Shown one piece after another: positions 42,669 through 57,072 of a DNA stretch of 64,000 nucleotides (its first letter is position 1; each line of letters begins with the position of its first letter). The notes beneath the pieces are model-generated. The model saw only the letters and a program-made list of their open reading frames with translations. It did not search any database and was not told where the DNA came from. The translations under genes were made by a program, and so were the position numbers. The stretch comes from Leptolyngbyaceae cyanobacterium (GTDB taxonomy: Bacteria; Cyanobacteriota; Cyanobacteriia; Phormidesmidales; Phormidesmidaceae). The stretch covers positions 2,467,867 through 2,531,866 of the forward strand of contig CBDHHL010000056.1 in NCBI GenBank assembly GCA_965263355.1. The letters run 5' to 3'.

Positions 42669-43826
42669 CTACAGCCGCTCCCATGGATATGGCGTTCCAG
42701 ATCTAGCGCGCTGCCACAGAGGGCTCAAAATCCAAATTAAGATAAACGGCAGTAGGGCAAACCACAGCGTTTGATAGTTAAACAGGTCAAATAGGCCAAA
42801 GAGCTGTCGGGGAATCGGAGTGGTATTCCAGAATGCACCAACAGCTATGGCTAAGCCCATGGAACCTGTACTCAAGCCCATGGAAGACAGTTTTTTCAAC
42901 CCCGTGAGTCTTAAAAATTTGGGATAAAACCGCTCATAGAGAGTTTGCCAATCGGGAAACGCAGCATATAGGCTCAGCACCGATATAAAGGGAATGCCCA
43001 ACAGCAGCGTGTTAGCACTGTGAAAGATGGGGGTTATCCTTAAAATTATGGCTTGGGCCATACGGCTAAAAAGGGTTAGAACAAATACCCCTTCAAACAG
43101 TAAAACGCCATACTGGGTTGGAATCGCTAAGAGATCAGTGCGACCTAGCTGAGGACCAAGGGAATGGATCGGAAACCCATTTTTGAGATGACTCTCTACT
43201 CCTTTAGTGAGAACAAAATCACCCACAAAGTGAGGATTGGCTAGCCAATCTACCTGAATACACTTTGTTATGGTTGCCGATAAAAACAAGAGAGAGATAA
43301 TCACCAACAGCCCCCGAGCGGGCCAAATGTAACGCCAGGAAGACACTTTAGGATCAACAGTAGGCCTGCCTTGTTTTTGTCTCAGTAATGCATCGATTGA
43401 ATAGGTGGCCCCCCAGTTAGACAACAGCATAAACAAGGGGACATAAAATGTTGTGACTAGTATGGTGCGTTCTTGGGTAAGCAGTCCGGTACGGAAAATA
43501 GCTAACCCAAATCCCATAAGCAATGTGGTCAGGGTTGCTAGCCGAGTTTTGTACCCTATCAGTAACAAGACTAATGCCATTACCAAGAGAATTTCCATGG
43601 TGGGGTAGGCAATACTGGGCAGGGGTGATACGCCTCTAAATAGTATGGTTGGCTCCCACAGACTAGTTGGCACCATACTCAGTTCACTAAACTGCATATG
43701 ACTGAGAAACCACAGATAGAAAAGACTGTACACAATGCGATAAAGCCCCATGCGACCGGCAGCATTTTGGGCCGGTCTTGTCAGCCAATGAACATAGCAG
43801 TGCTCAACACGCTGAAAAAAGTTCAT
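42669..43826 (-). CDS. HTTM-like multi-TM membrane protein (copy A)
   Basis: GLYRI, LLIGYKTR, YSIDA; paralog of 55418-56578. Confidence 0.75.
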   Translation of the reverse strand: MNFFQRVEHCYVHWLTRPAQNAAGRMGLYRIVYSLFYLWFLSHMQFSELSMVPTSLWEPTILFRGVSPLPSIAYPTMEILLVMALVLLLIGYKTRLATLTTLLMGFGLAIFRTGLLTQERTILVTTFYVPLFMLLSNWGATYSIDALLRQKQGRPTVDPKVSSWRYIWPARGLLVIISLLFLSATITKCIQVDWLANPHFVGDFVLTKGVESHLKNGFPIHSLGPQLGRTDLLAIPTQYGVLLFEGVFVLTLFSRMAQAIILRITPIFHSANTLLLGIPFISVLSLYAAFPDWQTLYERFYPKFLRLTGLKKLSSMGLSTGSMGLAIAVGAFWNTTPIPRQLFGLFDLFNYQTLWFALLPFILIWILSPLWQRARSGTPYPWERL

Positions 43827-43832
43827 AGGCGG

Positions 43833-44318
43833 TTATTGCGAGAGCATGGAGTTAATGGCATCAGCGTTGAAACTGTCTACCAGAATGGTTTGCGTTGGCT
43901 GACCCATATCAATGGGGGGATCTTGGTCAAAGTCAACTTTCCAGACGTACTGCCAGGCGTCGATCTGTTTAATTTCAGTATCGAGGACAAAGTCAACTTG
44001 ACGGATCAGGTAGGGCTGGTAAATAGCTTTTTGCTCATCGGTACCGGTGATGGCGCGGTAAATCAGCTGGTGCCCAGCGGCCTGTCTGGATGAATCGTCA
44101 TCAATGGTGTAAAGGTCCATAGGACGTAGGATGTGTTGCTGACCATCACTGGCCTGGACATGCAGTTCAAGGCGACTGGTTTCGGTCGGTGGATCATAGT
44201 TACCGCTGGAGTACATTTCCCACCAGATAAACGGCCATACACCTCCTCCCAAGGCCATCAAGAGGAAAGAGATACCGAATGTGAAATATTTGGCTACCCG
44301 TAGATCCTGATCATCCAT
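43833..44318 (-). CDS. hypothetical partner protein (WPFxWWxMY motif), copy A
   Basis: Paralog of 56599-57072; 6 bp upstream of the HTTM-like gene. Confidence 0.75.
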   Translation of the reverse strand: MDDQDLRVAKYFTFGISFLLMALGGGVWPFIWWEMYSSGNYDPPTETSRLELHVQASDGQQHILRPMDLYTIDDDSSRQAAGHQLIYRAITGTDEQKAIYQPYLIRQVDFVLDTEIKQIDAWQYVWKVDFDQDPPIDMGQPTQTILVDSFNADAINSMLSQ

Positions 44319-44531
44319 GGGATTTAGTTTATCTCATGACTGCTCACTAATTTGGGATAAATGTGTACAAGACTTTGCAGGAGTCTCAAAATTATGAGGC
44401 ATTTCAAAGAACAGTTAAGCTCTGTCAAATCAGAAGCAATACATTGATTAGTGAGACATGAGAATTACATCAGAGACCGCACTCTCAAGCAAGCTTGAGT
44501 AGATGCCAGCAGCGCAACTAGACAAATTGCA

Positions 44532-44615
44532 TCGTAACGAGGAGCTGAGCGGTGGCCAGAATTTTAGATCTACACCTAGAGTATTCATTCCGCCCACTCC
44601 TGCGTAGGGTTAGGC
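44532..44615 (-). other. attC-like recombination site 1 (84 bp, degenerate)
   Basis: Minus strand GCCTAAC-cctac-gcaggagtgg...ccgctcagc-tcctc-GTTACGA, starting 3 nt after the retropepsin stop codon. Confidence 0.7.
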
Positions 44616-44618
44616 GAC

Positions 44619-45026
44619 TCATTCAGCGTTTGGATTGACGTCAAACTCCATTTTGGAGCGATAGAAGCACACGTCAAATTCCATAAAAAAGTTGGTTTGA
44701 CCAAGAATAACTGGGATATTTTCAGCTCTCGCCCAGGCAAAGGCTAGCCGTGCAGAACCGCAACCTTCGACATCTGCCATGGTAAACAGAGGCATGGCTG
44801 GTTGGCCTCCTAGGTTACCTGCCAGTTGAATTACAGCTTTTTTATCATCCCAAGTCGCTCCCAGCTCAAGTCCGACTTCATAAGGCAAGACGTTTACTGT
44901 AGCGCCACTGTCTACTAATCCAACTACCTCTACGCTGCGGTTTTGATAATTGAGGAATAATGGAATGCGAGGCAGGCTATCAAACTCATTTTGGGACGAG
45001 TCAGTCGTTGAATATCTGAAGCGCAT
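44619..45026 (-). CDS. retropepsin-like aspartic protease
   Basis: GLVDSGA active-site motif; ILGQTNFF. Confidence 0.85.
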   Translation of the reverse strand: MRFRYSTTDSSQNEFDSLPRIPLFLNYQNRSVEVVGLVDSGATVNVLPYEVGLELGATWDDKKAVIQLAGNLGGQPAMPLFTMADVEGCGSARLAFAWARAENIPVILGQTNFFMEFDVCFYRSKMEFDVNPNAE

Positions 45027-45042
45027 ATCTGAGCCACCCTAA

Positions 45043-45246
45043 TCAATCAGCTGCTGGCATGGCTTGCATCAGAATAGCGCCTGCACCAAAAGCATTGTAA
45101 GGCGTTGGCAAAAAGTAAGTCTTGAAAGGCTCGAATGGTGAAATATTCATATCACTACAGAGATCAGCTGCTAGAAGCCTTACCAGTTCTAGTTTTTCTG
45201 ACTCTGGCAATTGCCTAAGTGTAGGTAAAAGATCCGCTAAAGTCAT
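45043..45246 (-). CDS. small hypothetical protein upstream of the retropepsin gene
   Basis: MTLADLLPTLRQLPESEKLELVRLL, an antitoxin-like small helical protein. Confidence 0.65.
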   Translation of the reverse strand: MTLADLLPTLRQLPESEKLELVRLLAADLCSDMNISPFEPFKTYFLPTPYNAFGAGAILMQAMPAAD

Positions 45247-45352
45247 ACACAAGCCTCGATGGATTAGCCTATACCTCTAGCATAGTGTAGCTGAAGGAAG
45301 TCAGCGTTGCTCTAGCTATTGGGCCACCTGATTTTTGGAGTGCTCGCCTTCA

Positions 45353-45991
45353 TTAACGAAGTTTTGGCAGAACTGTTTTTTCCAATTTATCTGCAATGCG
45401 AACGTATGCTAGCAAGGGATTACCTAATCCGAAGGGTAGTGCCTTAATAATATCTCTATCAATTCGATAAACTCTAGAACCAATTCGGAAAATAACATCT
45501 CGATCCTCACGTGCTTTTACACGTTCTCTTAATCGTCTAATCTCTTCACTGATTGAACTTTCACCAACTTGCTCATTTAGCAAAACTAATTCTCTATCGA
45601 GATTCTCAAGTTCATCTAAAATTCTTGTAGCATCTCGTTCTAAGCTATTTATCTTATCTAAAGCAGCTTATCGCTGTGACTCAAGTTTTATACTTTCTGA
45701 AAGTCTTAATCGCTCTGCTTCCAAAATTTGAATCTTCTCTTCCTGAGTTTTTGCTTGCTCTATCAACCTTTCAATTTCTGGAACTTTAGCAAGCTGTTGA
45801 ATAATTTCGCCATCAGAACGACTAATTGCATATCCCAGCAAGGCTAAGCCAGTAGGAGCCGCAGTAGCTGAGGCGATACCAAACCAAACGACAAAACGAT
45901 TATCTTTTCCAGAACGAATCCCAAGGTAAACGGTTCCAGTAATAAGGCCAGTTGCGATTAATGCTGCAAGAATTTGCTTTATCGAAATCAT
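45353..45991 (-). pseudogene. membrane-anchored coiled-coil protein with an in-frame nonsense codon
   Basis: ORFs 45668-46024 and 45353-45583 share one frame; a single TAA at 45668-45670 separates ...ESQR from AALDKINSLERD... Confidence 0.75.
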
Positions 45992-46027
45992 TGAGGTTAA
46001 GTGCAACTTCAGGCAGTGATGCAAGCC

Positions 46028-46114
46028 GACTAACGTTCTCGCTTAACGGACGTAGATCACCTTTGCATCTCAACTCTATCTTGGATTCGTTCCGGTGCAG
46101 CGGGTTTGTTAGAG
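46028..46114 (-). other. attC recombination site 2 (87 bp); R'' box interrupted by an IS
   Basis: Minus strand CTCTAAC-aaacc-cgctgcaccggaac...gtccgttaagcg-agaac-GTTAGTC. Confidence 0.82.
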
Positions 46115-47436
46115 CAGCCCAAGGAAAAAAGCATCCAATGGTTACCTGATAGCTATGTTGTTGCGGTGACGGGAATTTCAACGAACCATTTTTCTAATCC
46201 TGGCAGTCGTTGCCACTGTTTTTCCAGCTCATCCATAGCACTCGCCGACAAGCTAACCCCGGTCTCGTATATCTGAGTGATCAATTTCACCACCGGGTGA
46301 TTGCCCTTAAAAGTTAACGTGGCCGCAAAGTTCAGTACCGTCTCAACGCTGTCTAGCAGATCCCCATTCCAATGTTGTTCTAACCAACCAAAGGTGCGCT
46401 CAACGGGATTGTATTTACTGTGATAGGGGGGATAATAGGCTAACTGCAAGGGAATGTGTTCTCGATTCACCCACTGCACCAATCGAAACATAAATTGAGT
46501 GCGTCGTGACTGGTTTTCGGGACCGTTGTCGAGATTAATCACCCACTTTTGAATCTGGGGAAACTCAACTTTAATGTCGTTCCACCACTGTTCAAGTAGG
46601 TCAACGAGGCAGTCTGCGGTGACCTTGGAGGTCACAAAGAACAAAGATAAACGGTCGTATTGAGGCAAATAAATCCCCACAGGTGTCAGCGTCTGAGTGG
46701 GCTTAAAATCATGGTCTGCTGCCAGGGTGGGAACCCGATTTTTTTCCCCCTCGGTCATAGTCGCCGATATTAATGGTCGCCTTAGCATCGATGGAAATGC
46801 GCAAGGTCGATTCATCGGCATCCGCCTCCGCATTGACCCGACCCACTTGGTCAAAAATGGCGTCAGTTTCGGGAATTTTCTTTTGGGGTTTGGCTTTGAT
46901 CACTCGTCTTAAACAATAGTTCATCTCATTGAGCCGTTGACGAATCACTTCTGAGGTCGGTAACTCGTCGTCACGATACCCCGTTTGCTCGATCAATTGA
47001 CGACGTACCTCGGGAGCACTGATACGGGTATACAACCGCTCACTGCGTAAACTCGGATCTGCTTGGGTGAAGGGATCGACTATTGCACGAATATCGTCTT
47101 GTAACTTGGGCAACCTCGACTCCACTCGTTTACGTCCTCGACGGCCAAAGGCATCTTCAATCGGAGTCCCACTGGTTAACTCCTGCATCCCTTTACGAAT
47201 CGTGCCACGGTTCCATCCCAACGTCTGTTCGGCACGGGTTTGGCCTCCTATCCCCAACTCCTTGACCACCTTGGCCATAAACTGACGACGATGGGTGCCC
47301 TTTAGCTGGTTGGCGGTTTCTATAAATAGGGCTTTGAGAGAATCAGTTAATTCAAGAGACGTGGATGCCACAGAGCTGATTTAGAAATAGTCGACTGCTC
47401 TGACTATTATAGGATGATTTATTTATTTGGCAGCTC
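46112..47436 (-). mobile_element. ISAzo13-family insertion sequence
   Basis: Imperfect TIRs GAGCAGCCCAAGGAAAAAAGCATCC and (reverse complement) GAGCTGCCAAATAAATAAATCATCC; TA on both flanks; split transposase. Confidence 0.85.
46153..47371 (-). CDS. ISAzo13-family DDE transposase, two ORFs joined by a probable -1 frameshift
   Basis: PQKKIPETDAIF, ISIDAKA, DHDF, DNGPEN, YYPPYHSKYNPVER; GGGGGAAAAAAA slippery tract at 46739-46750. Confidence 0.88.
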
Positions 47437-47534
47437 TAAAGTTAGCAGTGGTGCAATCTAGCTGCAATATTCCCTTCATTACAACTCCTCATGTTGCTTG
47501 CTAGCACATGGAGCTTATTCTATTGAAACTCTAT

Positions 47535-49127
47535 TTATAATCGGCAAACCTCTAATCGAGTAAATAGGCTTGGCACCACTTTGACCCATCCCCCAGGTCG
47601 AGGTAAGTGTCCTAACGGAGCAGATAACCCAAAGGTCAAGTCATAGTAGGGTATCCAAATACCTTTTGATCGCCACCCAACAAGGTCTCCAAACCTTTTA
47701 TAGGCATTATCATCGTAATCATCATCAAACCTACCACCACATTCTAGATAAATTTGTTTCTGAATACTGAAACCAAATCTACCTTCACTATATTTCACCC
47801 ATAACTGGTCAAGCGTGCGGAGATCTACACAAGAAAATTGCTTAATCTCCTCTTCCCTAATCGAGTCACCTTCTCGCCGACCAACTTGCTTAAGTATGGT
47901 TATATATGTTTCATAATTAGCTGCTTTCCAGTTTTGAGATCTCAGTAGATCCCGTAACTGACTGTAGTCTAGCCCTCGATCAGAACTGAGATCATCATAA
48001 GAGGCTTTAACACTTGAAGATACTGAATTGGTGTGAATAGATAGATCAGAAATTACCTGTTCTTCGATTTCTGTAATGTCTTCTTCTCTCAACCCCAGAA
48101 GTTGCTGAAAATCCTTTAAATCAGATATCGTATCTGTATCCAAAGGATAACCAGAATCGTTTACAACTTCAATAAAAGTATTCTTATATTCTTCTAATCT
48201 ATTCTGCAACTCTCGGTGGGGTTTCAAGATTTCTTCTTCAATCTGTCCTGCTTCTGCTTCAGAAATCCCCAACCTTCCGCGAATAACGTGCAATCTTCGT
48301 CTGGCAACTGGCGATAGGTCGACCTTGTTCCTTTCCAAGGTTAAGTTCGTTACTTCTTTACGATATAGTAACTTTGGATTATCTTGTGGAGATCTTGCTA
48401 GAATAATTTTGTAGCCTTCCCTAGCAACATAGATTTCTGGCTGCATTGAGGGAACAACTTCTAGAACTCTTTGACGGGCGTATTGATACAACTCATCAGC
48501 TGTAATTAATCCATCCATATCCTGATCAGCTACCCCTGTTGCAATACCTTCAACCAAGAAACGGGTAAAGATTGAAAGATTAGATTCTTTTTGTTCAAAA
48601 GAGTATTCTACAGACGAGGAAGAAGTAAGGATAACTCTTCCACTACCACCTAACTGTGAAGCAACATCAATGCTATCGTTGCCTTTTACAGCTACAGTCG
48701 ACATGTCTCGAGCAAAAGCCCCACTGAAACTACAATCTAGGATAATAACTTGTCTTCTAGAGCGGCTAATGCTCATTACCTCTTGAATGAAATTAGCAGA
48801 AACAGCGGTAGATCTGACAAGCCTTTGATTACTCTTTCGAGTATTAGTGGTAGTCAGGTAAAGTCTGCGCATTTCATCTTTAACAGCGTGACCTGAGAAA
48901 TATAACAATACCAAGTCATCTTTATGAGAAGCAGAAAATAAAATTTCTATCTCTTGCTCCATCTGCTGCCTACTTGGGTCAAGCAATACAGATACTTGAT
49001 CAAAACCTCCTAACTCCGGATCCCTTAAAACGCGAGACATTGCTTCAGTGTCTGCCCTTGCAGCAGGAAGTGGAGAAAAATCTGATTCATACTCACTTAC
49101 TCCAATTAACAGTGCGGCTTTATTCAT
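47535..49127 (-). CDS. caspase-like (C14) peptidase domain + helical linker + GUN4-like domain
   Basis: KAALLIGVSEY, LLYFSGH, IILDCSFSG; GUN4-like DYSQLRDLL..WKAANYET..DLRTLDQLWVKYSEGRFGFSIQK..APLGHLP. Confidence 0.9.
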   Translation of the reverse strand: MNKAALLIGVSEYESDFSPLPAARADTEAMSRVLRDPELGGFDQVSVLLDPSRQQMEQEIEILFSASHKDDLVLLYFSGHAVKDEMRRLYLTTTNTRKSNQRLVRSTAVSANFIQEVMSISRSRRQVIILDCSFSGAFARDMSTVAVKGNDSIDVASQLGGSGRVILTSSSSVEYSFEQKESNLSIFTRFLVEGIATGVADQDMDGLITADELYQYARQRVLEVVPSMQPEIYVAREGYKIILARSPQDNPKLLYRKEVTNLTLERNKVDLSPVARRRLHVIRGRLGISEAEAGQIEEEILKPHRELQNRLEEYKNTFIEVVNDSGYPLDTDTISDLKDFQQLLGLREEDITEIEEQVISDLSIHTNSVSSSVKASYDDLSSDRGLDYSQLRDLLRSQNWKAANYETYITILKQVGRREGDSIREEEIKQFSCVDLRTLDQLWVKYSEGRFGFSIQKQIYLECGGRFDDDYDDNAYKRFGDLVGWRSKGIWIPYYDLTFGLSAPLGHLPRPGGWVKVVPSLFTRLEVCRL

Positions 49128-51033
49128 GGTCTATTTCATGCGTAACGAATGCTAGTAAACTATGAATCTCATCGTTATCTGACTCTATATCTAATGCTTT
49201 TCTAAGTTGCTCTTTGGCTAGCTTAAACTCTTTTTGTAATCTTAAGTCTCGACCATATCCCAAAAGTGCTTGAACATAATTTTCCTCGGTTTTTAATGGA
49301 TCAATCTGAAAAGCCCTTGTATAGAGTGCTGAGGCTCTACCAAAATCCTCAACCTCTAAGTACGCTGCTGCCATATCAAATAGAGCACTAAAATGATTGG
49401 AATTTAAATCTAGTACCTGGTTATATAAATCAATTACAATTGTTATGTCACCTTTTCGATGCAAATTAGTCGCTCTTTGATAGATACGCTCAGCTTTTGG
49501 ATCTAGTTTCTCCAGTTCCCTTATTTCCTGGTAAAGTGGGTATCGATTGACTAACCAATGACGGACAAGTTCAATTTTGACTTTATACGTCGAAGCTTTG
49601 TAATCCTTTACAGAGTCTAGAAAATTCCATTCAACAAGACGTTTTTCAGCATCAACTAATGGTTTAGTCAAAACAACTCCATACTCCTTTAATAACTCTC
49701 CTGGAAGAGCTAATTTAGACTCTACATTGGGTAATCCAAGTGTTAGAATCTGTCCAATATGAATTTGCTGTAATTCTGTACTGACTACAATTGCTCCTAA
49801 TCTTGGATCATAAGAGGCGATCCAGCTTACCGAAGGCAACTTACGCATGAGATAGCTATATATCCAGACTGGGGCAGGACCAGTAATAACTATTCCAGTA
49901 TTCGTATTAATTTCTTCAGGCAGCTCTAATTTAGAGAGAACTTTCGGCTCAATACGTCTGTCCTCAGAGAGGATCTCTATGGTCAACCATTGATAAGTTA
50001 AGCCTTTGTAATCCTGTGGTTCACTCAGCTTTAAACGAACTGAGACATTAGATGTTTGACTAATATTACTTTGAATATCTAAAGCATTGAATTCTTTATT
50101 AGCGTTTTTTTGCGCTTCTGCCACAGCAGAAAAGATAACTCTTTCAGGAATTGGCAATCCGTCTCGAAACCATGCTAATCCTGCTTCACCAATCTCAATT
50201 GCCCTATCTATAATTTTCCTTACATCTCCACGAATGATTCTCCAATTTTGTCGATCTCGTGCATACCCAAACAGTGCAAAGCATATTAATTGCGTAAAGT
50301 AAGGATGTCTCGCTGAGAGATCAAGAATTTCTTGTATAGCTGCTGAATCATATTTCAGGATCCCTTCAGCAGGTTCAACAATTAACTGCTTAGCACTTGT
50401 TTCATCAAGTAAACCAATCTCTCGACTAGGTGCTTCTTTAAATAAACTAAGTAACTTGGGCATATCATCCAGCCGTCGCCCGACTACTGGAATGAGAATT
50501 AATTGCTTTTGTCGATAAATAATTGACTGTAAATAGGGGAAGAAATTTTCAACTGCTACGTCTGACTTATCACTATTTAAGACATCAAACTCATCCATTA
50601 AGAAGACCAAGTGTCTGCCTGATAATACTCTATAAATCTTAGGCAGAAAAACACTATGAAAAATACTTGAGTCTGTCTTCAATTCCTCTACAGAAGGTGA
50701 TGTTACGTCTTTTAATTGCAATTCAAGTTGATCGACAATCTCCACAGCAATATAGTGCAAAATATCACTAAGATGTGCTTGGCTTCTATCCTGAAGATCA
50801 AGCAAGACAAAAGCAAATTCATCTAATCCAACACAAGCTGGAATTTGAGAGAGTACTGAGGACTTGCCAATGCGCCGTTGGCCATGTAGCAAAATAACCT
50901 TCGCGCCTGACTTCAAATTGTCCTCAACAAATTGAAATAGACGTTCTCGCCCGAAGAAAAGCTCTGGCTTATCGATTGGGCTACCAATGTCGTAAGGATT
51001 TCTTCGAGATTGTGAAGACAACATGAGCATCAA
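49120..51033 (-). CDS. STAND-like AAA+ ATPase with an inserted Csx3/Crn3-like domain and C-terminal TPRs
   Basis: NPY..FFGRE, GQRRIGKS, FLMDEFD, RHPYFTQ; Csx3-like GIVITGPAPVWIYSYL..WIASYDPRLGAIVVST (about 49735-50040); TPR-like helices. Confidence 0.85.
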   Translation of the reverse strand: MMLMLSSQSRRNPYDIGSPIDKPELFFGRERLFQFVEDNLKSGAKVILLHGQRRIGKSSVLSQIPACVGLDEFAFVLLDLQDRSQAHLSDILHYIAVEIVDQLELQLKDVTSPSVEELKTDSSIFHSVFLPKIYRVLSGRHLVFLMDEFDVLNSDKSDVAVENFFPYLQSIIYRQKQLILIPVVGRRLDDMPKLLSLFKEAPSREIGLLDETSAKQLIVEPAEGILKYDSAAIQEILDLSARHPYFTQLICFALFGYARDRQNWRIIRGDVRKIIDRAIEIGEAGLAWFRDGLPIPERVIFSAVAEAQKNANKEFNALDIQSNISQTSNVSVRLKLSEPQDYKGLTYQWLTIEILSEDRRIEPKVLSKLELPEEINTNTGIVITGPAPVWIYSYLMRKLPSVSWIASYDPRLGAIVVSTELQQIHIGQILTLGLPNVESKLALPGELLKEYGVVLTKPLVDAEKRLVEWNFLDSVKDYKASTYKVKIELVRHWLVNRYPLYQEIRELEKLDPKAERIYQRATNLHRKGDITIVIDLYNQVLDLNSNHFSALFDMAAAYLEVEDFGRASALYTRAFQIDPLKTEENYVQALLGYGRDLRLQKEFKLAKEQLRKALDIESDNDEIHSLLAFVTHEIDHE

Positions 51034-51099
51034 CCCTTAGCCATGAACTTGAGGAGTAAGACTATACATAAAGCACGCATTGAAATAATAAACAAAAAT

Positions 51100-52401
51100 C
51101 TAGCCTGATACAAACCCTTTCGGAACAGCACTAACTAGCTTACTAGTCCATTCAATGATAGATGGTACTTCATCTTTGTGCTGCCATAAATAACGTATCC
51201 CACCCCTAATCTGCTCTGCTTGCTTAGTGCTCATCAAATTAAGAAAAACCTTTTGACGTTGTTGAAGCTCTTCCTCATTACTATTTTCAATTTCTTTAAT
51301 AACCCACCATTCCATCAACGATGAGGCAAATGTGTAGTTATGTCTACCCTCCTGGGAAATTCGGATGATGACTCCTCGTTGTTCTAAATCCGTCAGTTCA
51401 CGCTCCCGTTGACTAAGGATGATGCTGATATCACCCAAATCATAAATTTTCCCCTTTATTCGACCCTTCAAATTAGATAAAGCAATTAACATCAAAAGCA
51501 TTTGTTCTTCTTGGTTTGACATTTCCCACATCTGTTGAAAAAATTGCTCAACCGAACTTAGGAAGTCTCGTGCAAATGCTTCGGGATCGGGTATTTCTCC
51601 AGTCTGAAGTTTGTCATATAAAAGATACCCTGCATGTTGAATTAATGCAGGATGTCCATCAGTCATTTCTCTAATCCCATCTCGTAGTTCTGCTGTCATA
51701 GGCATGCAGCCTAGCAGTACATCAATTTCGCTATCAGTAAATGGCTTTAAAGGTTGGAATAAATAGTGGTTATACCATGGAGACTTATCTGGAGAAAGCT
51801 TTGGACCAAGCTCGTTAAGACGCCGAAATGAAGTGACAATAATTGAAAGACAGCCTTTACTCTGAACCGCTAAGTTGCGAGTTTCGCTTAGGAAAATTTC
51901 TATGCTGCTTTCTTCATATTGGTCATGTGAACGGAAAGCAGCATCATAGTTATCTAGCAATAGCACTAAAAACTTCTTCTGTTTTCCTACCCGCTTCAAG
52001 AGCTGGCGTAACTCATCCTTGGTTACTTCAGCCTTTTCTAGAGATTGATCGATCCAGGCTTGTAATGCACTACTACCGTCAGCAACCTCATCCTTGATCA
52101 GGATTAGAATTTCCCTCCAAAAGGCAGCTGGCAGGAAAGGATATATGCTCAAGCAATCTAGATATACAACAATAGACTCAGAACGTTGGCATCCATAATG
52201 TTGCCAAATTTGAGGAGAAAGCAACAACTCCAAAAAAGATGATTTCCCCATTCCCGAACCACCCCATATTGCCAGACAGCTACGACTAGCGATTCGATCA
52301 AACGCAACACCAAGTTCAGATTTCCATCCAACGAAGCTTTCTGGTGAAACTAGCTTTCCAGGAGAAAAAGGATTTTTTGTCATGGCTTTTTTTGGGTCCA
52401 A
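51100..52401 (-). CDS. STAND-like AAA ATPase (partner)
   Basis: NPF..FVGW, GGSGMGKS, LLLDNYD, GHPALIQ. Confidence 0.85.
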   Translation of the reverse strand: MDPKKAMTKNPFSPGKLVSPESFVGWKSELGVAFDRIASRSCLAIWGGSGMGKSSFLELLLSPQIWQHYGCQRSESIVVYLDCLSIYPFLPAAFWREILILIKDEVADGSSALQAWIDQSLEKAEVTKDELRQLLKRVGKQKKFLVLLLDNYDAAFRSHDQYEESSIEIFLSETRNLAVQSKGCLSIIVTSFRRLNELGPKLSPDKSPWYNHYLFQPLKPFTDSEIDVLLGCMPMTAELRDGIREMTDGHPALIQHAGYLLYDKLQTGEIPDPEAFARDFLSSVEQFFQQMWEMSNQEEQMLLMLIALSNLKGRIKGKIYDLGDISIILSQRERELTDLEQRGVIIRISQEGRHNYTFASSLMEWWVIKEIENSNEEELQQRQKVFLNLMSTKQAEQIRGGIRYLWQHKDEVPSIIEWTSKLVSAVPKGFVSG

Positions 52402-52492
52402 AGGTCCAAAGGTCTCGATGAAAATTTTTCCTTTAACTAGCTTAGTGCCACAGTCAGTTTTTGGGCACTACCTCTATACAGAACGAGAAGCA

Positions 52493-52579
52493 GCCCAACG
52501 ACTAAGCTCACCGGACACAGATCCTCTTGGCCACTCGACCGATTACCTTTCACCGTTCCGGTGCGGCGACTTGTTAGCC
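52493..52579 (-). other. attC recombination site 3 (87 bp)
   Basis: Minus strand GGCTAAC-aagtc-gccgcaccggaac...gtccggtgagc-ttagtc-GTTGGGC; similar to site 2; begins 13 nt after a stop codon. Confidence 0.85.
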
Positions 52580-52592
52580 CTCAGCAAAAGCC

Positions 52593-52766
52593 TTATCTTT
52601 CAATTCGTTCAAGTTCCTCACGAACTACTTTCCGCAACGTTTCCTCAAGCGGTTGTCGAGTGGCCTGAACGTGTTAGCGTAAAGCTTCGTGAATTAAGGT
52701 TTGGTAGTTTCCACCACCTGCACTATGCACTTGTTCACGAAACCATGCCAGAACATCATCATCTAG
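52593..52766 (-). pseudogene. BrnA-type antitoxin remnant (5'-truncated, internal stop)
   Basis: Manual translation LDDDVLAWFREQVHSAGGGNYQTLIHEALR*HVQATRQPLEETLRKVVREELERIER*; TAA at 52674-52676. Confidence 0.75.
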
Positions 52767-53012
52767 CCAGTTTGTGGCTCGATTGATGACGATCACCACC
52801 TCCCTCAAGGCTCAGAGTAGGAATATTCTTGATTTCCTGACCCAGACTTACTCGGCTGCGCGTACCGGAAAAGAACCGCCTTCTTTGATCCTACAAAACC
52901 AACGGTAGGGACAGTTACGTTTTTATTTAAGCAATATCCTGAAAATCTAAGCCTTACTGATGAAAATGAGAGAGTCTTTATCAAAGCTTTTCTTGATTGA
53001 TTATTATTATGA

Positions 53013-53460
53013 TCATGGTCCCCAAACCGATACGACATTATCGTCTTGTGTCACATCTCGTTTAGATCCTTTAACATACCAGTTATGATAGCCTCGTCTT
53101 TCAGGATCGTTATTTGTAATTGTTCCTATATTTAGTCCATATACGACATATCCCCAGCCTCCAATCTCTGCTGTTCCCAACCTAACTGCTGAATTACTGA
53201 TTGAGTAATCTAAGTTCGTAACTAAAACAGCAACAGCTTTGATTTTATGCTTCTTAGCTTTGTCAAATACATCCGTTCCATACTTCACAACTAAGCTGCC
53301 CCTGCGCGAATCTGCTTCCTCACGTTTTCTATGTGCTTCTTCAAAAGCTAACGCTGTATTGGCAATACCAGTGGCAGCACTGATCATTGCAGCTGTGGCA
53401 CTTTGCGCACCTGCGGCAGCACTTATCAAGCCTGCTATGGCTGCTATTTGAAGGGGCATG
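53013..53460 (-). CDS. hypothetical protein in the first cassette; weak resemblance to Bacillus YvgO-type proteins
   Basis: Ala-rich N-terminus, then GTITNND..GYHNW..G; approximate start at MPLQ (ORF track start 53567). Confidence 0.55.
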
Positions 53461-53623
53461 ACAAAAGACCTCGTAAAAGAAAAAGAAAGTGAACCTTGTT
53501 TTCTAACTATAGGGCATCTCGATCGATTAAATATCAGCGTTGTATGGAATGCCGAGTCAGTTTGCACATCATTGCTCCTTCACAGATGATCTAGGCAAAC
53601 TGCTCAGGTTCGGGAACAAAGCC

Positions 53624-54391
53624 GTCGGGTAAGGAAGCAGGTTTTAAATATATCCCGCTTCCTCCCCTCAGAACCGTACGTACAACTTTCACTGTATACG
53701 GCTCAAGCAATGTCTTGAAATTCAGTTTTTCCGATTCTTAACAACCTTTTCAGATTGTCCTGATGGTTACGTTTACAAGCCGAAGCTTGCACCTAACTTT
53801 TCCCAATCAGTTAAGTTTCATCTCACCTTCATTCAAGTCCATCACCTATCCCACGTCAGCCCCCTTTCAGGTTGGGCAAATGCCCTATCTGCCCCGTTAT
53901 GAATTCCGGTTGCCTTTCGGCTGGCAGCTTTCGCTTCTTGGGATATCCTGTGCCCGCTAGAGAGTTCAGCTTTGGTTGCCCTCCGCTTACCTGGAAAATA
54001 AAGTATTTTCAGGACTCTATCGGGGTTTCCTCGTTCCGCACGGGGTGGAGATATGATTGCTTTAGGATTCCTCTTTACTCCGAGAGCGGGATGTTCTTGA
54101 TTGGCATTTAGACGCTACCAACCCCCATATGCTCCAATATTCTCGTATCAGCCATTTCGAGAACTCACATTAACGAAGCCTCATCAAGGATTCACTTGCG
54201 TTATCCTTAGCAATCTTGCCCTAGCCTGCACCCTCTTGTTGGCTCAGAAGATACTGCGACATTTAACCTCGTCTGCTGATGCTGCCCTCCCATTACTGGT
54301 CGAACATTCCGAGGCGGACATCCGCCTGAACACTGGCGGGGAGAGTCATTTGGGAGTCTCTCCAACTCCCCCGAACGACTTCGAGTCGCGC
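53624..54391 (-). mobile_element. ORF-less group II intron (IIB-like ribozyme, 768 nt)
   Basis: 5' end GCGCGAC (GUGYG variant); 34-nt domain V GAGCCGTATACAGTGAAAGTTGTACGTACGGTTC; domain VI ending CCCGAC; candidate EBS1/EBS2 pair with the upstream exon; no RT ORF. Confidence 0.88.
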
Positions 54392-54410
54392 GCATAACTA
54401 TGAGTTATCC
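54392..54410 (-). other. attI-like simple site
   Basis: Minus strand GGATAAC-TCATA-GTTATGC (L box, 5-bp spacer, R box) at the head of the attC array, in the same orientation. Confidence 0.65.
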
Positions 54411-54540
54411 AGACTAAGTCTGGATAACTACCTTCCAGCCGGAGTTATCCAGAAACTTTCTGGATAAACACCTTATAAGCAATTAACCCAGAAACTTTCT
54501 GGATAATACCCCCAGAGTCGGAGTTATCCAGAAAGCTTTA
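54403..54540. repeat. four palindromes of about 27 bp (AGTTATCCAGA-N5-TCTGGATAA) at about 40-bp period
   Basis: Copies start at 54403, 54443, 54482 and 54522; the last is a half site. Confidence 0.85.
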
Positions 54541-54749
54541 ACCTCGCTTTAATAGTTCAAATAAACTATTGAGCCATCTACCAAGACTTATCGTGAGTGT
54601 GATGTTTTAGGGGGTCGCTAAGACTATCCTTGTTCGATGGGGTCAATATCTACCGTTTTTGACGGTTAAACCAGTGAAATGAGCATTTTTCCGGCCAGAA
54701 GCATCTCCTCAGTGCCTTGATAACAGCGTGATACAGCCCATTTGCTAGC

Positions 54750-54863
54750 TTGACGAAAGCCTAACCCCCGGTCTAAAGTAACCCAATGCTGCAAGTGCAG
54801 CTGTTCTACTAGAACCTAATAACTTGGCACCATCGGCAGGTGCTCGCAACACCTAACCGATGG
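54750..54863 (+). promoter_or_regulatory. putative sigma70 promoter followed by a leader hairpin
   Basis: TTGACG-N18-TAAAGT; CCATCGG..CCGATGG stem at 54830-54863. Confidence 0.4.
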
Positions 54864-54995
54864 CTGACCCGCGGATTACCGTGCAATCCTTGGGATGGGC
54901 TTATTATGCCTCAGCCCCTGCGATTTGCCATGCATCGCGGGGGCTGAGCCGTTAGGTTCTGGCTTTCCTTGTTGTTTCTCTGGAGAACCAGAACC

Positions 54996-55235
54996 ATGTT
55001 TCAAGACCCAACCCAGGGCGCATCAGCGCTCACCCGTCGCCCTGACCCGCTACCAGAATCTTCCTACGAAATGGGACGACATCTGCTGCTGGGCAGTTTG
55101 ACCTTTGTGCAGACCACCATCAAACTACTGCATAAGCTCAACTACACTGAGCCCAACGACTGGAGCCGTCCGCTACCCACCGGACGCCCCAATGAGGTGA
55201 TGGCGATTTTGACTAAAAAAGTGAAGATTAGCTAG
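54996..55235 (+). CDS. small cyanobacterial hypothetical protein
   Basis: RHLLLGS..VQTTIKLLHKLNY.EPNDWS.P.PTGRPNEVMAIL, a pattern recalled from a multicopy cyanobacterial family. Confidence 0.7.
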   Translation: MFQDPTQGASALTRRPDPLPESSYEMGRHLLLGSLTFVQTTIKLLHKLNYTEPNDWSRPLPTGRPNEVMAILTKKVKIS

Positions 55236-55417
55236 GGCGATGCGATCGCATCCTTATCTAAAGGTGCGATCGCAGCCTTATTTAACGGACTAATCCTATG
55301 CTCTATCAAGACTAAAGTTGCGGGTAAACAACATGGTCTGAAACATGATTCTCGTCAGTACTTTATACTTTTCTTTACCCCCATTAGCCTGCCCTCAGAT
55401 AGAAAGTATTTCAGAGG

Positions 55418-56578
55418 TTAGAGGCGTTCCTGGTTGGATAAAGACTGATGGTGCTGCCTACGTTGCCAAAGTGGACTGACAATCCACAGAACTATAAACG
55501 GCAGGAGTGCAAACCATAGGGTTTGATAGCTAAGTACGCCAAAGAGGCCAAAGAGTTGACGCGGGATGGCTGTGGTATTCCAAAGCAGGCCAATGAGTAC
55601 TGCCAAACCGACGGAGCCAGTCACTAACAGTGAGGGAGATAGTTTGTCTAAGCCCTTTACTCGTAATAGCTTGGGATAAAACCGTTCATAGAGCATTTGC
55701 CAATCTGGAAAGGCAGCATAGATGCTTAAAACTGTTGTAAATGGAATGCCCAACAGTAGTGTATTGAAGCTGTGAAAAATAGGAGCTAAGCGCAAGATGA
55801 TGGCCTGGGCAACCCGATTAAAGAGAACCAAAATAAACGCTGTTTCAAACAGTAGTACCGCATATTGGGCTGGAATGGCTAAGGCAGCGGTGCGACCCAG
55901 CTGAGGCCCCAGGGGATAAATGGGAAACCCATTACTGAGATGACTTTTAACCCCTTTTGCCAGGATAAAATCCCCCACCAATTGCGGTTCAACCAGCCAG
56001 GAGACTTCCAAAAATTTGACGATGGCGGCTGATAAAAACAAGATTGCTAAGATCACCAACAGTCCCCGTGCTGGCCAGATATAACGCCAGGAAGACTCTC
56101 GGGGAGATGGAACTAGCTGTCCTTGCTTTTGTTTGAGTACAGCATCGATGGAATAGGTCGCCCCCCATTTAGAAAACAACATAAATAAGGGAACATAGAA
56201 CACAATCAGTACGATGGTTCGCTCTTGAATTAAAAAGCCAGTGCGAAACCCAGCTAACCCAAACCCGACAATTAAAACAACCAGATTGGCCAGACGGGTT
56301 TTATAGCCCAGCAATAGCAAGATCAATGCCATCACCAAAAGCATTTCTAGGGTTGCATAGCCAACATCTGGCAGTGGCGATAACACTTTTAGCAAAATGG
56401 TAGGTTTCCATTGGTTAGTGGGCACCAGGCCAAGTTCCGCAAATCTGAGAGGACTGAGAAACCATAGATAGAAGACGCTATATATGATGCGATAGAGACC
56501 CATGCGGCCAGCTGCATTTTTCGCAGGGCGTGTGAGCCATTGACCATAGCGACGCTCAAGCTGCTGGAAAAATTTCAT
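55418..56578 (-). CDS. HTTM-like multi-TM membrane protein (copy B)
   Basis: Paralog of 42669-43826. Confidence 0.75.
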   Translation of the reverse strand: MKFFQQLERRYGQWLTRPAKNAAGRMGLYRIIYSVFYLWFLSPLRFAELGLVPTNQWKPTILLKVLSPLPDVGYATLEMLLVMALILLLLGYKTRLANLVVLIVGFGLAGFRTGFLIQERTIVLIVFYVPLFMLFSKWGATYSIDAVLKQKQGQLVPSPRESSWRYIWPARGLLVILAILFLSAAIVKFLEVSWLVEPQLVGDFILAKGVKSHLSNGFPIYPLGPQLGRTAALAIPAQYAVLLFETAFILVLFNRVAQAIILRLAPIFHSFNTLLLGIPFTTVLSIYAAFPDWQMLYERFYPKLLRVKGLDKLSPSLLVTGSVGLAVLIGLLWNTTAIPRQLFGLFGVLSYQTLWFALLPFIVLWIVSPLWQRRQHHQSLSNQERL

Positions 56579-56598
56579 AGGGGCTATCTAGACAACAC

Positions 56599-57072
56599 TT
56601 AGTTTGTAGTATGAGCAGTAAAGCGATCAATAAAAACGCTTTGGGTTGGCTGTTGAATATCTAGCGGCGGGTGTTGCTCAAAGTCAACATGCCAAACGTG
56701 ACGCCAGGCCTCCACCTGCTCGATTTTGGTGTCGAGCAGAAATTCCAGTTGTTGAATCAAGTAAGGGCGAGAAATTGCTTGCTGTTCTGCATTGCCTTCT
56801 ACGGCGGCTTGCATCAGTCTATGCCCTGGTGTTTGGTTAGAGGTATCGTTATCTAGGGTGTAGAGGTCCATCGGACGTAATACATGCTGATGGCCAGCAC
56901 TATCTAAAACATGGAGTTCGAGACGACTTACTTTAGTCGGTGGCGTGTAACCATCGCTGGTGGAGTACATGTCCCACCAGGTAAATGGCCATAGGCTACC
57001 ACCCAGCACTAACAGCACAAAGGCCATGCCTGCAGTGAAATATTTAGCGAACCGCAACTCCTGAGTTTCCAT
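56599..57072 (-). CDS. hypothetical partner protein, copy B
   Basis: Paralog of 43833-44318 (LRPMDLYT shared). Confidence 0.75.
   Translation of the reverse strand: METQELRFAKYFTAGMAFVLLVLGGSLWPFTWWDMYSTSDGYTPPTKVSRLELHVLDSAGHQHVLRPMDLYTLDNDTSNQTPGHRLMQAAVEGNAEQQAISRPYLIQQLEFLLDTKIEQVEAWRHVWHVDFEQHPPLDIQQPTQSVFIDRFTAHTTN

Follow-up and report, generated by a model that had tools for sequence, protein, structure and literature searches.

Positions 44532..54540 of the window, the whole 64,000-nt stretch of DNA that was analysed, are a genuine integron cassette array (a gene-capture array) of a cyanobacterium. Its head is a conserved platform without an integrase gene, made up of attI, a spacer, the small gene orfX and a HIP1 hairpin. 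We think it probable that the array is a satellite integron, an integrase-less platform found at many chromosomal sites and served in trans, and comparison of its copies suggests that gene capture likely continues at such platforms, by means of an integrase encoded elsewhere in the genome. It has stayed an open question whether arrays without an integrase gene still work as capture sites or are dead relics, because for most integrons attI is unknown and no search with it is possible. In the present case the cognate attI has been identified; the majority of its copies have no intI but do hold differing first cassettes, which makes service in trans directly testable with a named integrase, its site and a candidate accessory factor, orfX. 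If this reading is true, active capture points in these cyanobacteria are undercounted by integron finders.

The attC sites, the attI and the platform head

The array and its surroundings comprise the following features (window coordinates).

42669..44318, minus: host gene pair, copy a (385-aa membrane protein and 161-aa partner), 70% identical to copy b
44532-44615, minus: attC3, the array's distal end, 84 bp (46.4 bits, E 7.6e-9)
44619..45252, minus: small protein and aspartyl-protease-like protein, candidate defence pair PDC-M52A/B
45353..46024, minus: two ORFs (118 and 76 aa) without a family, probably one split gene
46028-46114, minus: attC2, 87 bp (54.0 bits, E 1.1e-10)
46109..47439, minus: ISAzo13-family IS (PF07592), transposase in two overlapping ORFs, 31-nt imperfect terminal inverted repeats
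47535..49127, minus: caspase (EACC1-associated type)-GUN4 protein (NF047832 over cut-off, PF00656, PF05419)
49120..51033, minus: STAND ATPase-Csx3 (ring-nuclease-like)-TPR fusion
51100..52401, minus: STAND/AAA ATPase (AAA_16, nSTAND1), gene 1 of the 5-kb cassette
52493-52579, minus: attC1, 87 bp (51.5 bits, E 4.6e-10)
52593..52811, minus: broken BrnA-type antitoxin gene with an in-frame stop (PF14384, E 5.8e-5, below the family cut-off)
53013..53459, minus: first-cassette ORF, 148 aa (184 aa from an upstream GTG)
53624..54391, minus: ORF-less group II intron, 768 nt (RF00029, 66.4 bits; gathering score 40)
54392..54573, minus: attI, consisting of a simple site, three dyads and a half-site
54410-54404 and 54398-54392, minus: L box and R box (GTTATGC) of the attI simple site, with a 5-bp spacer
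54405-54427, 54445-54467 and 54484-54506, minus: attI dyads, with a half-site at 54524-54532
54574..54995, no strand: conserved non-coding spacer in place of intI, including a promoter-like site and the orfX leader
54750-54779, plus: promoter-like site, a consensus match at chance level
54996..55235, plus: orfX, 79-aa protein, companion of cyanobacterial intI
55242..55273, no strand: hairpin with HIP1 octamers as both arms (at 55242 and 55266), the platform's outer boundary
55418..57072, minus: host gene pair, copy b, at the island's other flank

A first-pass annotation, made from the letters alone, had described three minus-strand attC-like sites. A covariance model trained on 21 attC sites, all from other genomes, returned exactly these three as strong matches over the 64-kb window, each with TAAC...GTT ends and paired inner boxes; the next-best match, at 15 bits, is attC1 read antisense. 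This model was used in place of a strict grammar scan, which missed attC3 and gave several false matches. Minimum-energy DNA folding produced the attC hairpin for attC2 and attC3, not for attC1. Covariation in alignment A1 is partly circular and was not counted as evidence, because its sites had been chosen by pairing. Degenerate attC sites had also been suspected near 45270-45325 and 52850-52900, and the covariance model detected neither.

Two details of the earlier description needed amendment. The sites of 84, 87 and 87 bp are real, but the IS abuts the R'' box of attC2, so that the first 3 bases of this '87-bp' site belong to the IS end. Likewise, the orientation of every attC relative to its genes was right, but the IS separates attC2 from the caspase gene that it was said to follow. 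Spacing is 1.4 kb between attC2 and attC3 and 6.4 kb between attC1 and attC2, above the 4-kb default cited in PMC4889954. The array has three clustered sites where a CALIN has at least two, and tblastn places no intI nearby in the 64-kb window; of the marks of a complete integron, it has co-oriented cassettes ending in attC and an attI simple site with a G|TT crossover, and lacks an intI adjacent to attI. Rejection of the attC sites by the model, together with a fixed gene order, had been named as grounds for giving up the array; this combination was checked and not found. Base composition is as first described, with an AT-rich cargo (42.5% GC inside the array vs 46.9% outside, and 39.4% in the 5-kb operon) and an island free of HIP1 octamers (0 copies in 44330-55240 vs 23 elsewhere in the window; 4.7 expected, Poisson P about 0.009). 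The array also looks worn: besides the broken BrnA gene, the split gene and the IS at attC2, its R'/R'' boxes complement each other imperfectly.

The attI simple site reads GGATAAC-TCATA-GTTATGC (54410-54392), and three dyads, spaced at a period of 39-40 bp, come before it (none of 100 shuffles gave as many as 3 matches). In three complete integrons, L002, L006 and L036, the site immediately preceding intI shares about 85% identity with the window attI, and the same attI type directly precedes a full-length integron integrase gene there and in the frameshifted L054; homology between attI copies stops at the G|TT crossover. Judged by this comparison, the attI-like site earlier placed at the head of the array is a real integron attI, since the same site directly precedes intI in relatives. 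The absence of a tyrosine recombinase gene beside it was also borne out: tblastn with four cyanobacterial IntIs found no intI or remnant in the 64-kb window (best E 0.33). Two minus-strand consensus matches to a cassette promoter Pc are at chance level, and the attI region had no match in plasmids.

In place of intI lies the spacer, which is 77-91% identical in 8 other platform loci of the attI motif scan and whose orfX-proximal part resembles sequence downstream of intI in L068. The orfX product has no family match in Pfam, NCBIfam or PADLOC. Named ones among its homologues (n=224) are cyanobacterial hypotheticals, and at 9 of 33 intI loci (29 of which have 1.5 kb of downstream DNA) orfX follows intI on its strand at a distance of 240-370 bp. 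Its predicted fold is beta-alpha-beta (pLDDT 73.6) without a clear match (Foldseek best E 0.052; VIA best Z 4.4, rmsd 2.9, 63 aligned), and its matches in Atlas are < 0.9 and unnamed. In the orfX tree, the window, 7 other attI-bearing platforms, 2 partial platforms and 2 solo copies form one clade (100/99), which stands apart from intI-adjacent orfX. Many orfX modules occur without an intact attI. A HIP1 pair similar to that of the window ends 9 other platform-type copies (one arm imperfect in three), beyond which the sequences mostly diverge.

Cargo, intron and insertion site

The first-cassette ORF belongs to no Pfam, NCBIfam or PADLOC family, and the toxin-antitoxin relic noted earlier is the BrnA fragment. 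At the distal end, PADLOC matches PDC-M52B at E 1.4e-42 and PDC-M52A weakly, at E 0.0066. The STAND/AAA ATPase has an 84% identical protein in G210, a distant cyanobacterium, where the whole STAND/Csx3/caspase operon is 76% identical over 4994 bp and begins at the same GTT, after a different attC; the 3' attC of the operon cassette was not found in G210. The STAND gene has no match at 1e-60 in 172 genomes of the order, and among 19 loci with homologues at phylum level only the closest has an adjacent attC. If the satellite reading is true, large (5-kb) defence-like operons move between distant cyanobacteria as cassettes.

The group II intron sits between attI and the first cassette, 7 nt after the attI crossover G. 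RF00029 identifies its catalytic domain V and domain VI, its longest stop-free frame is 98 aa, and its EBS layout points to the IIB type. GTT lies at -7 in 21 of 23 intron relatives with a flank. With EBS1 placed from the intron's predicted fold, EBS1-IBS1 pairing averages 5.6 of 6 at the junction (offset 0, 15 sites) vs 1.3-3.5 at offsets 1-11. Pairing of EBS2 with IBS2 is 6/6 in the window; the family mean of 3.3 is within background, and targeting of the attI spacer by EBS2, which suits the window intron, was rejected for its family. Group IIC-attC introns, as described in PMC7923331, also lodge at an integron recombination site, but enter the attC bottom strand in the orientation opposite to the cassettes, whereas the window intron is ORF-less, on the top strand, co-oriented and behind attI. 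The IIB intron UHB.I2 (PMC8876359) is likewise co-oriented with cassettes, but is reported just downstream of an attC. For the IS at attC2, the flank sequences gave no clear resolution of a target duplication.

The island was inserted into a site that is otherwise syntenic. It is absent there in 10 of 10 relatives, nine of which have one copy of the host gene pair and one of which has three tandem copies; copy a is contiguous with acsF in relatives.

Platform copies in other genomes

The platform head was found in several genomes at 75–91% identity, with differing flanks and first cassettes. Scanning for the attI motif yielded 66 loci, of which 45 are cyanobacterial, with several often present in one genome. 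The attI core is matched at 41 loci, 29 of which have at least one attC, and all 48 attC matches near those cores lie on the cassette side and the cassette strand. Among the 33 loci with enough upstream DNA, 27 lack intI, two (L049 and L053) keep a 22-codon stub and four have a full-length intI, frameshifted in one case; in L126, a truncated intI joined to an orfX module adds to the stubs as an independent deletion. Near-full platforms number at least 8 copies, spread over 6 of the 120 family genomes; because only 4 candidates were scored per genome, the true number may be higher. Scanning metagenomes yielded 4 loci: two equal L010 over 400 bp after GTT and are not independent, one is without attI and one has an altered crossover.

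Seven platform copies have nothing in common within up to 1.5 kb after GTT. When the first cassettes of the window and of 28 genome loci with a located GTT (probably misplaced in one, L022) are compared, only L049 and L056 share one, which is gene-less and 140 bp long. L021 and L052 have a common outer flank over the first 79 bp and different first cassettes. Looking for further copies of attI and comparing cassettes among relatives, as the first-pass annotation had proposed, thus revealed many integrase-less copies and little sharing of first cassettes. Platform attI sites remain 83-94% identical and retain an intact simple site, and their cores are of two types rather than one clade, so attI regions may have moved by homologous recombination, and arrays with them.

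Integrases occur in some of the same genomes. In G003, the same attI occurs in one complete integron and in two copies with an intI stub; G005 has one complete integron and one platform. Among the six full-platform genomes, which are drafts, only G005 has an IntI with the window's attI type; in G002 and G079 the IntI is full but of a different type (65% and 72% identity to the cognate one), G075 and G063 have a partial IntI only, and none was found in G087.

Probable service in trans and competing explanations

CALINs and their service in trans have been published (PMC4889954, PMC9668308), and mobilisation of CALINs in trans is stated in PMC9668308 and 10.1101/2025.06.18.660453. As in the window, a CALIN has at least two co-oriented attC sites and no intI nearby (Cury et al. 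2016, PMC4889954), and its origins and fates are given there as intI loss, rearrangement or service by an integrase elsewhere. CALINs are, however, defined regardless of attI (IntegronFinder matches attI of classes 1-3 only; PMC4889954), whereas in the window the cognate attI is retained, within a conserved platform that exists in multiple copies and includes orfX and a HIP1 hairpin. The sedentary chromosomal integrons of Xanthomonas (10.1101/2025.06.18.660453) and pseudo-integrons (PMC2426708) resemble the window as chromosomal arrays that have lost their integrase. In the Xanthomonas account, intI belongs to one locus (ilvD) and activity is lost progressively, unlike the present case, in which intI-less attI outnumber intI-linked ones at many loci with different first cassettes. 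The complete cyanobacterial integrons L002, L006 and L036 (TIGR02249) share the attC type and attI of the window, and L006 has an orfX homologue on the intI side; they differ in that the window has a short conserved spacer for intI and an orfX of a separate clade.

Under the satellite reading, the platform lineage would have lost intI long ago, or never carried it, while retaining orfX. An IntI from another locus would bind the dyad-rich attI, and circular cassettes would be inserted at G|TT, pushing older ones away. The intron, presumably with a borrowed reverse transcriptase, would home 7 nt past the crossover, as proposed from the match of EBS1 to the R-box consensus. The first-pass annotation had offered loss of intI and service in trans as an either/or; the two more probably apply together, given that the platform lineage has long been without intI and yet its copies carry different first cassettes. 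Counted against service in trans are the recognition of attI only by its cognate integrase, as reported in PMC2095811, with G005 alone having a matching IntI among platform genomes, as well as the two types of attI core, the worn look of the array and the many orfX modules that lack an intact attI. A broader version is possible, and we put it forward tentatively: a distributed integron, in which one or a few integrases serve many satellite platforms that spread as a unit to new chromosomal sites, with orfX as an accessory factor of recombination and the ORF-less intron family re-colonising each attI after every capture.

That the dyad array is the site of another recombinase or regulator, with the attC-like hairpins coincidental, is highly improbable and largely refuted. 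Class 1 attI1 consists of L/R plus DR1 and DR2, and the dyad-rich layout is unlike it; yet the site directly precedes TIGR02249 integrases, the attC matches downstream are without exception co-oriented and the breakpoint falls at G|TT. Frozen relics are a more serious alternative, though a doubtful one. Arrays would have been built beside intI, after which the orfX module repeatedly replaced intI through homologous recombination or deletion; equally doubtful is its corollary that the first-cassette differences are older than intI loss and the platform is now inert. The non-monophyletic attI cores, the independent intI deletions, the decay of the cargo and the commonness of intI pseudogenes reported in PMC2426708 favour such a history, but the platform orfX forms its own clade with one common spacer, attI is conserved with its simple site intact, and L021 and L052 combine one outer flank with different first cassettes. 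Platform and array could also be a non-autonomous mobile element moved whole, by IntI at a secondary site or by HIP1-linked recombination; this is unlikely, as is the accompanying proposal that cassette diversity reflects imported whole arrays and not capture in place. The empty syntenic site in all ten relatives, the several unrelated outer flanks of platform copies that end at the HIP1 hairpin, the GTTAAAT directly outside that hairpin in the window and a link of HIP1 to site-specific recombination described in PMC4390886 would fit. Against it, of 511 inverted pairs, the 25 longest include none that joins the island ends (the only IS lies inside the island), no HIP1 was found at the distal end and no GTT was seen at the same outer position in other platform copies. 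Movement of this kind is compatible with the satellite reading.

The window's DNA is present in three runs, X1 and X2 from one sample and X3 from the same study, and contigs of these runs tile an intI with about 85% identity to the cognate gene; the main contigs list no indel, attI is connected to the start of intI in one X3 contig, and each run has one contig that links the end of intI with orfX. Since these are mixed samples, in which the window's source is probably included, this intI, which may belong to another strain and may hold stop codons, was not assigned to the window's strain. Contig depth in X1 is 24 and 21 on the flanks, 11.7 on the distal cassettes, 3.9 on the operon and 2 on the first cassette, and X3 covers the operon in patches only. 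The drop would fit cassette variation among near-identical strains, but was not used as evidence because its step coincides with the IS and contig depth is no share of cells. An X1 joint between 44565 and 54395 is unreliable, with 25 nt on one side. In X3, an identical intron is followed by a different 3' flank and may be a second genomic copy.

Composition and setting of the array

To describe the attC sites, we used a covariance model built from other cyanobacterial genomes, in which a generic grammar picked 22 sites; one 130-bp outlier was left out and the remaining 21 were aligned. An unfiltered scan of both strands of the whole 64 kb with this model accepted all three minus-strand attC-like sites of the first-pass annotation (54.0, 51.5 and 46.4 bits), the next-best match in the window scoring 15 bits. 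The annotation's parts list of attI, attC and cargo also stands, but it had omitted an insertion element and an intron.

Features of the array
44532-44615, minus strand: attC3, 46.4 bits
46028-46114, minus strand: attC2, 54.0 bits
46109-47439: ISAzo13-family element, adjoining attC2
52493-52579, minus strand: attC1, 51.5 bits
53624-54391: ORF-less group II intron

The cargo is as AT-rich as had been proposed (GC 42.5% in the island vs 46.9% outside), and HIP1 is indeed missing, with no copies in 44330-55240 where 4.7 are expected (P about 0.009). The reported toxin-antitoxin relic is a BrnA relic, and the defence-like operon carries STAND, STAND-Csx3-TPR and caspase-GUN4 genes. A search with four cyanobacterial IntI proteins gave no match in the window (best E 0.33), in agreement with the missing integrase gene. 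The transposase of the ISAzo13-family element is encoded by two ORFs, and the element's flanks form no clean target duplication; its contig depth, ~10x that of its flanks in three sequencing runs (X1-X3), hints at many copies. In the same runs, contig depth falls in steps over 44903-53178, from the flanks towards the cassettes nearest attI, which weakly hints that near-identical strains differ in their cassettes.

At the syntenic site, M48, partner, membrane protein and acsF are contiguous in nine of ten relatives, and the tenth has three tandem pairs and no island. The island is thus an insertion between the two flanking pairs of the window, which are paralogous and 70% identical. The single pair of the relatives is nearer to the copy at 42669-44318 (L202, 82%) or to that at 55418-57072 (L194, 78%); G056 has three in tandem.

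A homologue of the 5-kb operon was found in G210, a genome beyond the order that had been searched, at 76% identity over 4994 bp. Because the homology starts exactly at GTT, behind a different attC, the operon entered as a cassette, although no attC was detected 3′ of it in G210. The attC preceding the homologue (L278:13297-13440) has lost its R″ end, and the sequence there seems to be the 5′ end of an oppositely oriented group IIC intron. In the window operon, a Csx3/Crn3 ring-nuclease-like domain is inserted in the product of 49120-51033, separating the STAND ATPase from the TPR repeats; alignments with the homologues in G465 and G420 cover the parts on both sides of it but leave it out. Csx3, GUN4 and caspase domains occur in cyanobacterial conflict systems (PMC7159879); we matched the exact operon to no named system.

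An attI type usually found without intI

At the head of the array, the simple site GGATAAC-N5-GTTATGC is accompanied by three dyads at 39-40 bp spacing. A dyad scan of species-representative genomes gave 66 loci, often several per genome, 45 of them cyanobacterial (Leptothoe, Adonisia and Leptolyngbya-like), and likeness to the window stops at G|TT, the crossover point. The attI call was upheld: the equivalent site directly precedes an integron integrase gene in four loci (L002, L006, L036 and the frameshifted L054), and the intact attI-adjacent integrases exceed the TIGR02249 cut-off. At the 41 of 45 cyanobacterial loci that match the attI core, all 48 attC matches share the side and strand of the cassettes; 21 of these 48 are the model's training set, yet they were picked on both strands irrespective of orientation. 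The model had no match at any of the 21 non-cyanobacterial loci. As a rule, this attI type occurs without intI: for 33 loci there was either an intI match or no less than 1.5 kb of upstream DNA (8 further loci were too short to assess), and intI is absent from 27 of the 33, a 22-codon stub in 2 and full-length in 4.

The window head, from 54392 to ~55273, is 75-91% identical to matching segments in other genomes. This platform consists, in order, of attI, a ~420 bp non-coding spacer, orfX (79 aa; 54996-55235, plus strand) and a hairpin of two HIP1 octamers, beyond which the copies mostly diverge; at least 8 near-full-length copies occur in 6 of 120 family genomes. orfX also lies 240-370 bp past intI in 9 of 33 intI loci, and is an integron companion gene. 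Pfam, NCBIfam and PADLOC searches gave it no family assignment, and fold searches with its predicted structure gave no clear match. In the orfX DNA tree, a platform clade with 100/99 support stands apart from intI-adjacent orfX, with the orfX of L066 outside it. The clade unites the window and seven further attI-bearing platforms with two partial ones and two solo copies. Platform attI cores are of two types in a poorly resolved attI tree, leaving room for exchange of attI regions.

An orfX module (54750-55273; L203-L217), comprising a conserved promoter-like site, a hairpin-rich leader, orfX and often the HIP1 hairpin, is present in many copies per genome without intact attI. Decayed dyad-like sequence lies behind several of these copies, which may represent former integron sites. 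Other cyanobacteria carry a second intI-less layout, at 2-4 copies per genome, in which a distant orfX homologue faces attI rather than away from it (L024, L034, L039, L062).

Cassette variation and the possible source of integrase

Sequence comparison leads us to think that the window probably holds a satellite integron: an old platform lineage, long without intI, would have kept a functional attI on which IntI encoded at another locus would act in trans. Beyond GTT, seven platform copies compared over as much as 1.5 kb have no sequence in common. The comparison of cassette content that had been proposed, across the window and 28 genome loci, found different first cassettes in all but one pair, L049 (2777-2917) and L056 (9854-9994), which have a gene-less 140-bp cassette in common (92% identical). 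L021 and L052 differ in first cassette, though 79 bp of outer flank is common to them. Alternatively, intI may have been replaced repeatedly, leaving frozen relics whose arrays are now inert, which we consider unlikely. That whole arrays move as units also seems unlikely, but is compatible with a satellite integron. The 140-bp cassette heads an intI-stub integron in one genome and an intI-less platform in the other.

For the satellite integron, IntI would have to come from elsewhere. G003 and G005 each have a complete integron with this attI alongside intI-less or stub copies. Full IntI is present in 3 of the 6 full-platform genomes (of cognate type in G005 only) and partial IntI in 2; none was found in the sixth. 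The window's DNA is present in three runs from one study and two samples (X1-X3), whose contigs tile an intI with ~85% identity to the cognate gene at L068. A junction between attI and the start of this intI is present in X3, and one between its end and orfX in every run. These samples are mixed, probably including the window's source, so integrase availability is shown for the sample rather than the strain. At L069:1-140, one end of a different group II intron sits just past an intI, at the hairpin that elsewhere opens the orfX leader.

CALINs and their possible mobilisation in trans are already described (PMC4889954, 10.1101/2025.06.18.660453, PMC9668308), as are intI pseudogenes (PMC2426708), integron-linked group II introns (PMC7923331, PMC8876359), attI specificity (PMC2095811) and a possible part for HIP1 in recombination (PMC4390886). 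Among the top-ranked literature matches, no published cyanobacterial attI, conserved intI-less platform or attI-homing intron appeared; the supplements of PMC4889954 may list cyanobacterial arrays. The orfX/HIP1 platform, orfX clade, empty site and 5-kb cassette are added by the present analysis.

A group II intron next to the crossover

The window intron starts 7 nt past the crossover G. For 23 of 24 other distinct insertion sites flanking sequence was available, and GTT lies at -7 in 21 of these; by eye, the sites are mostly behind attI-like dyads, with about three behind attC. EBS1 pairs at 5.6 of 6 positions at the junction vs 1.3-3.5 at other offsets (15 sites), and EBS2 gave no family-wide signal. 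With the intron positioned within the first cassette, any further capture would be expected to displace it downstream. An RT-bearing relative occupies the same attI type in L091.
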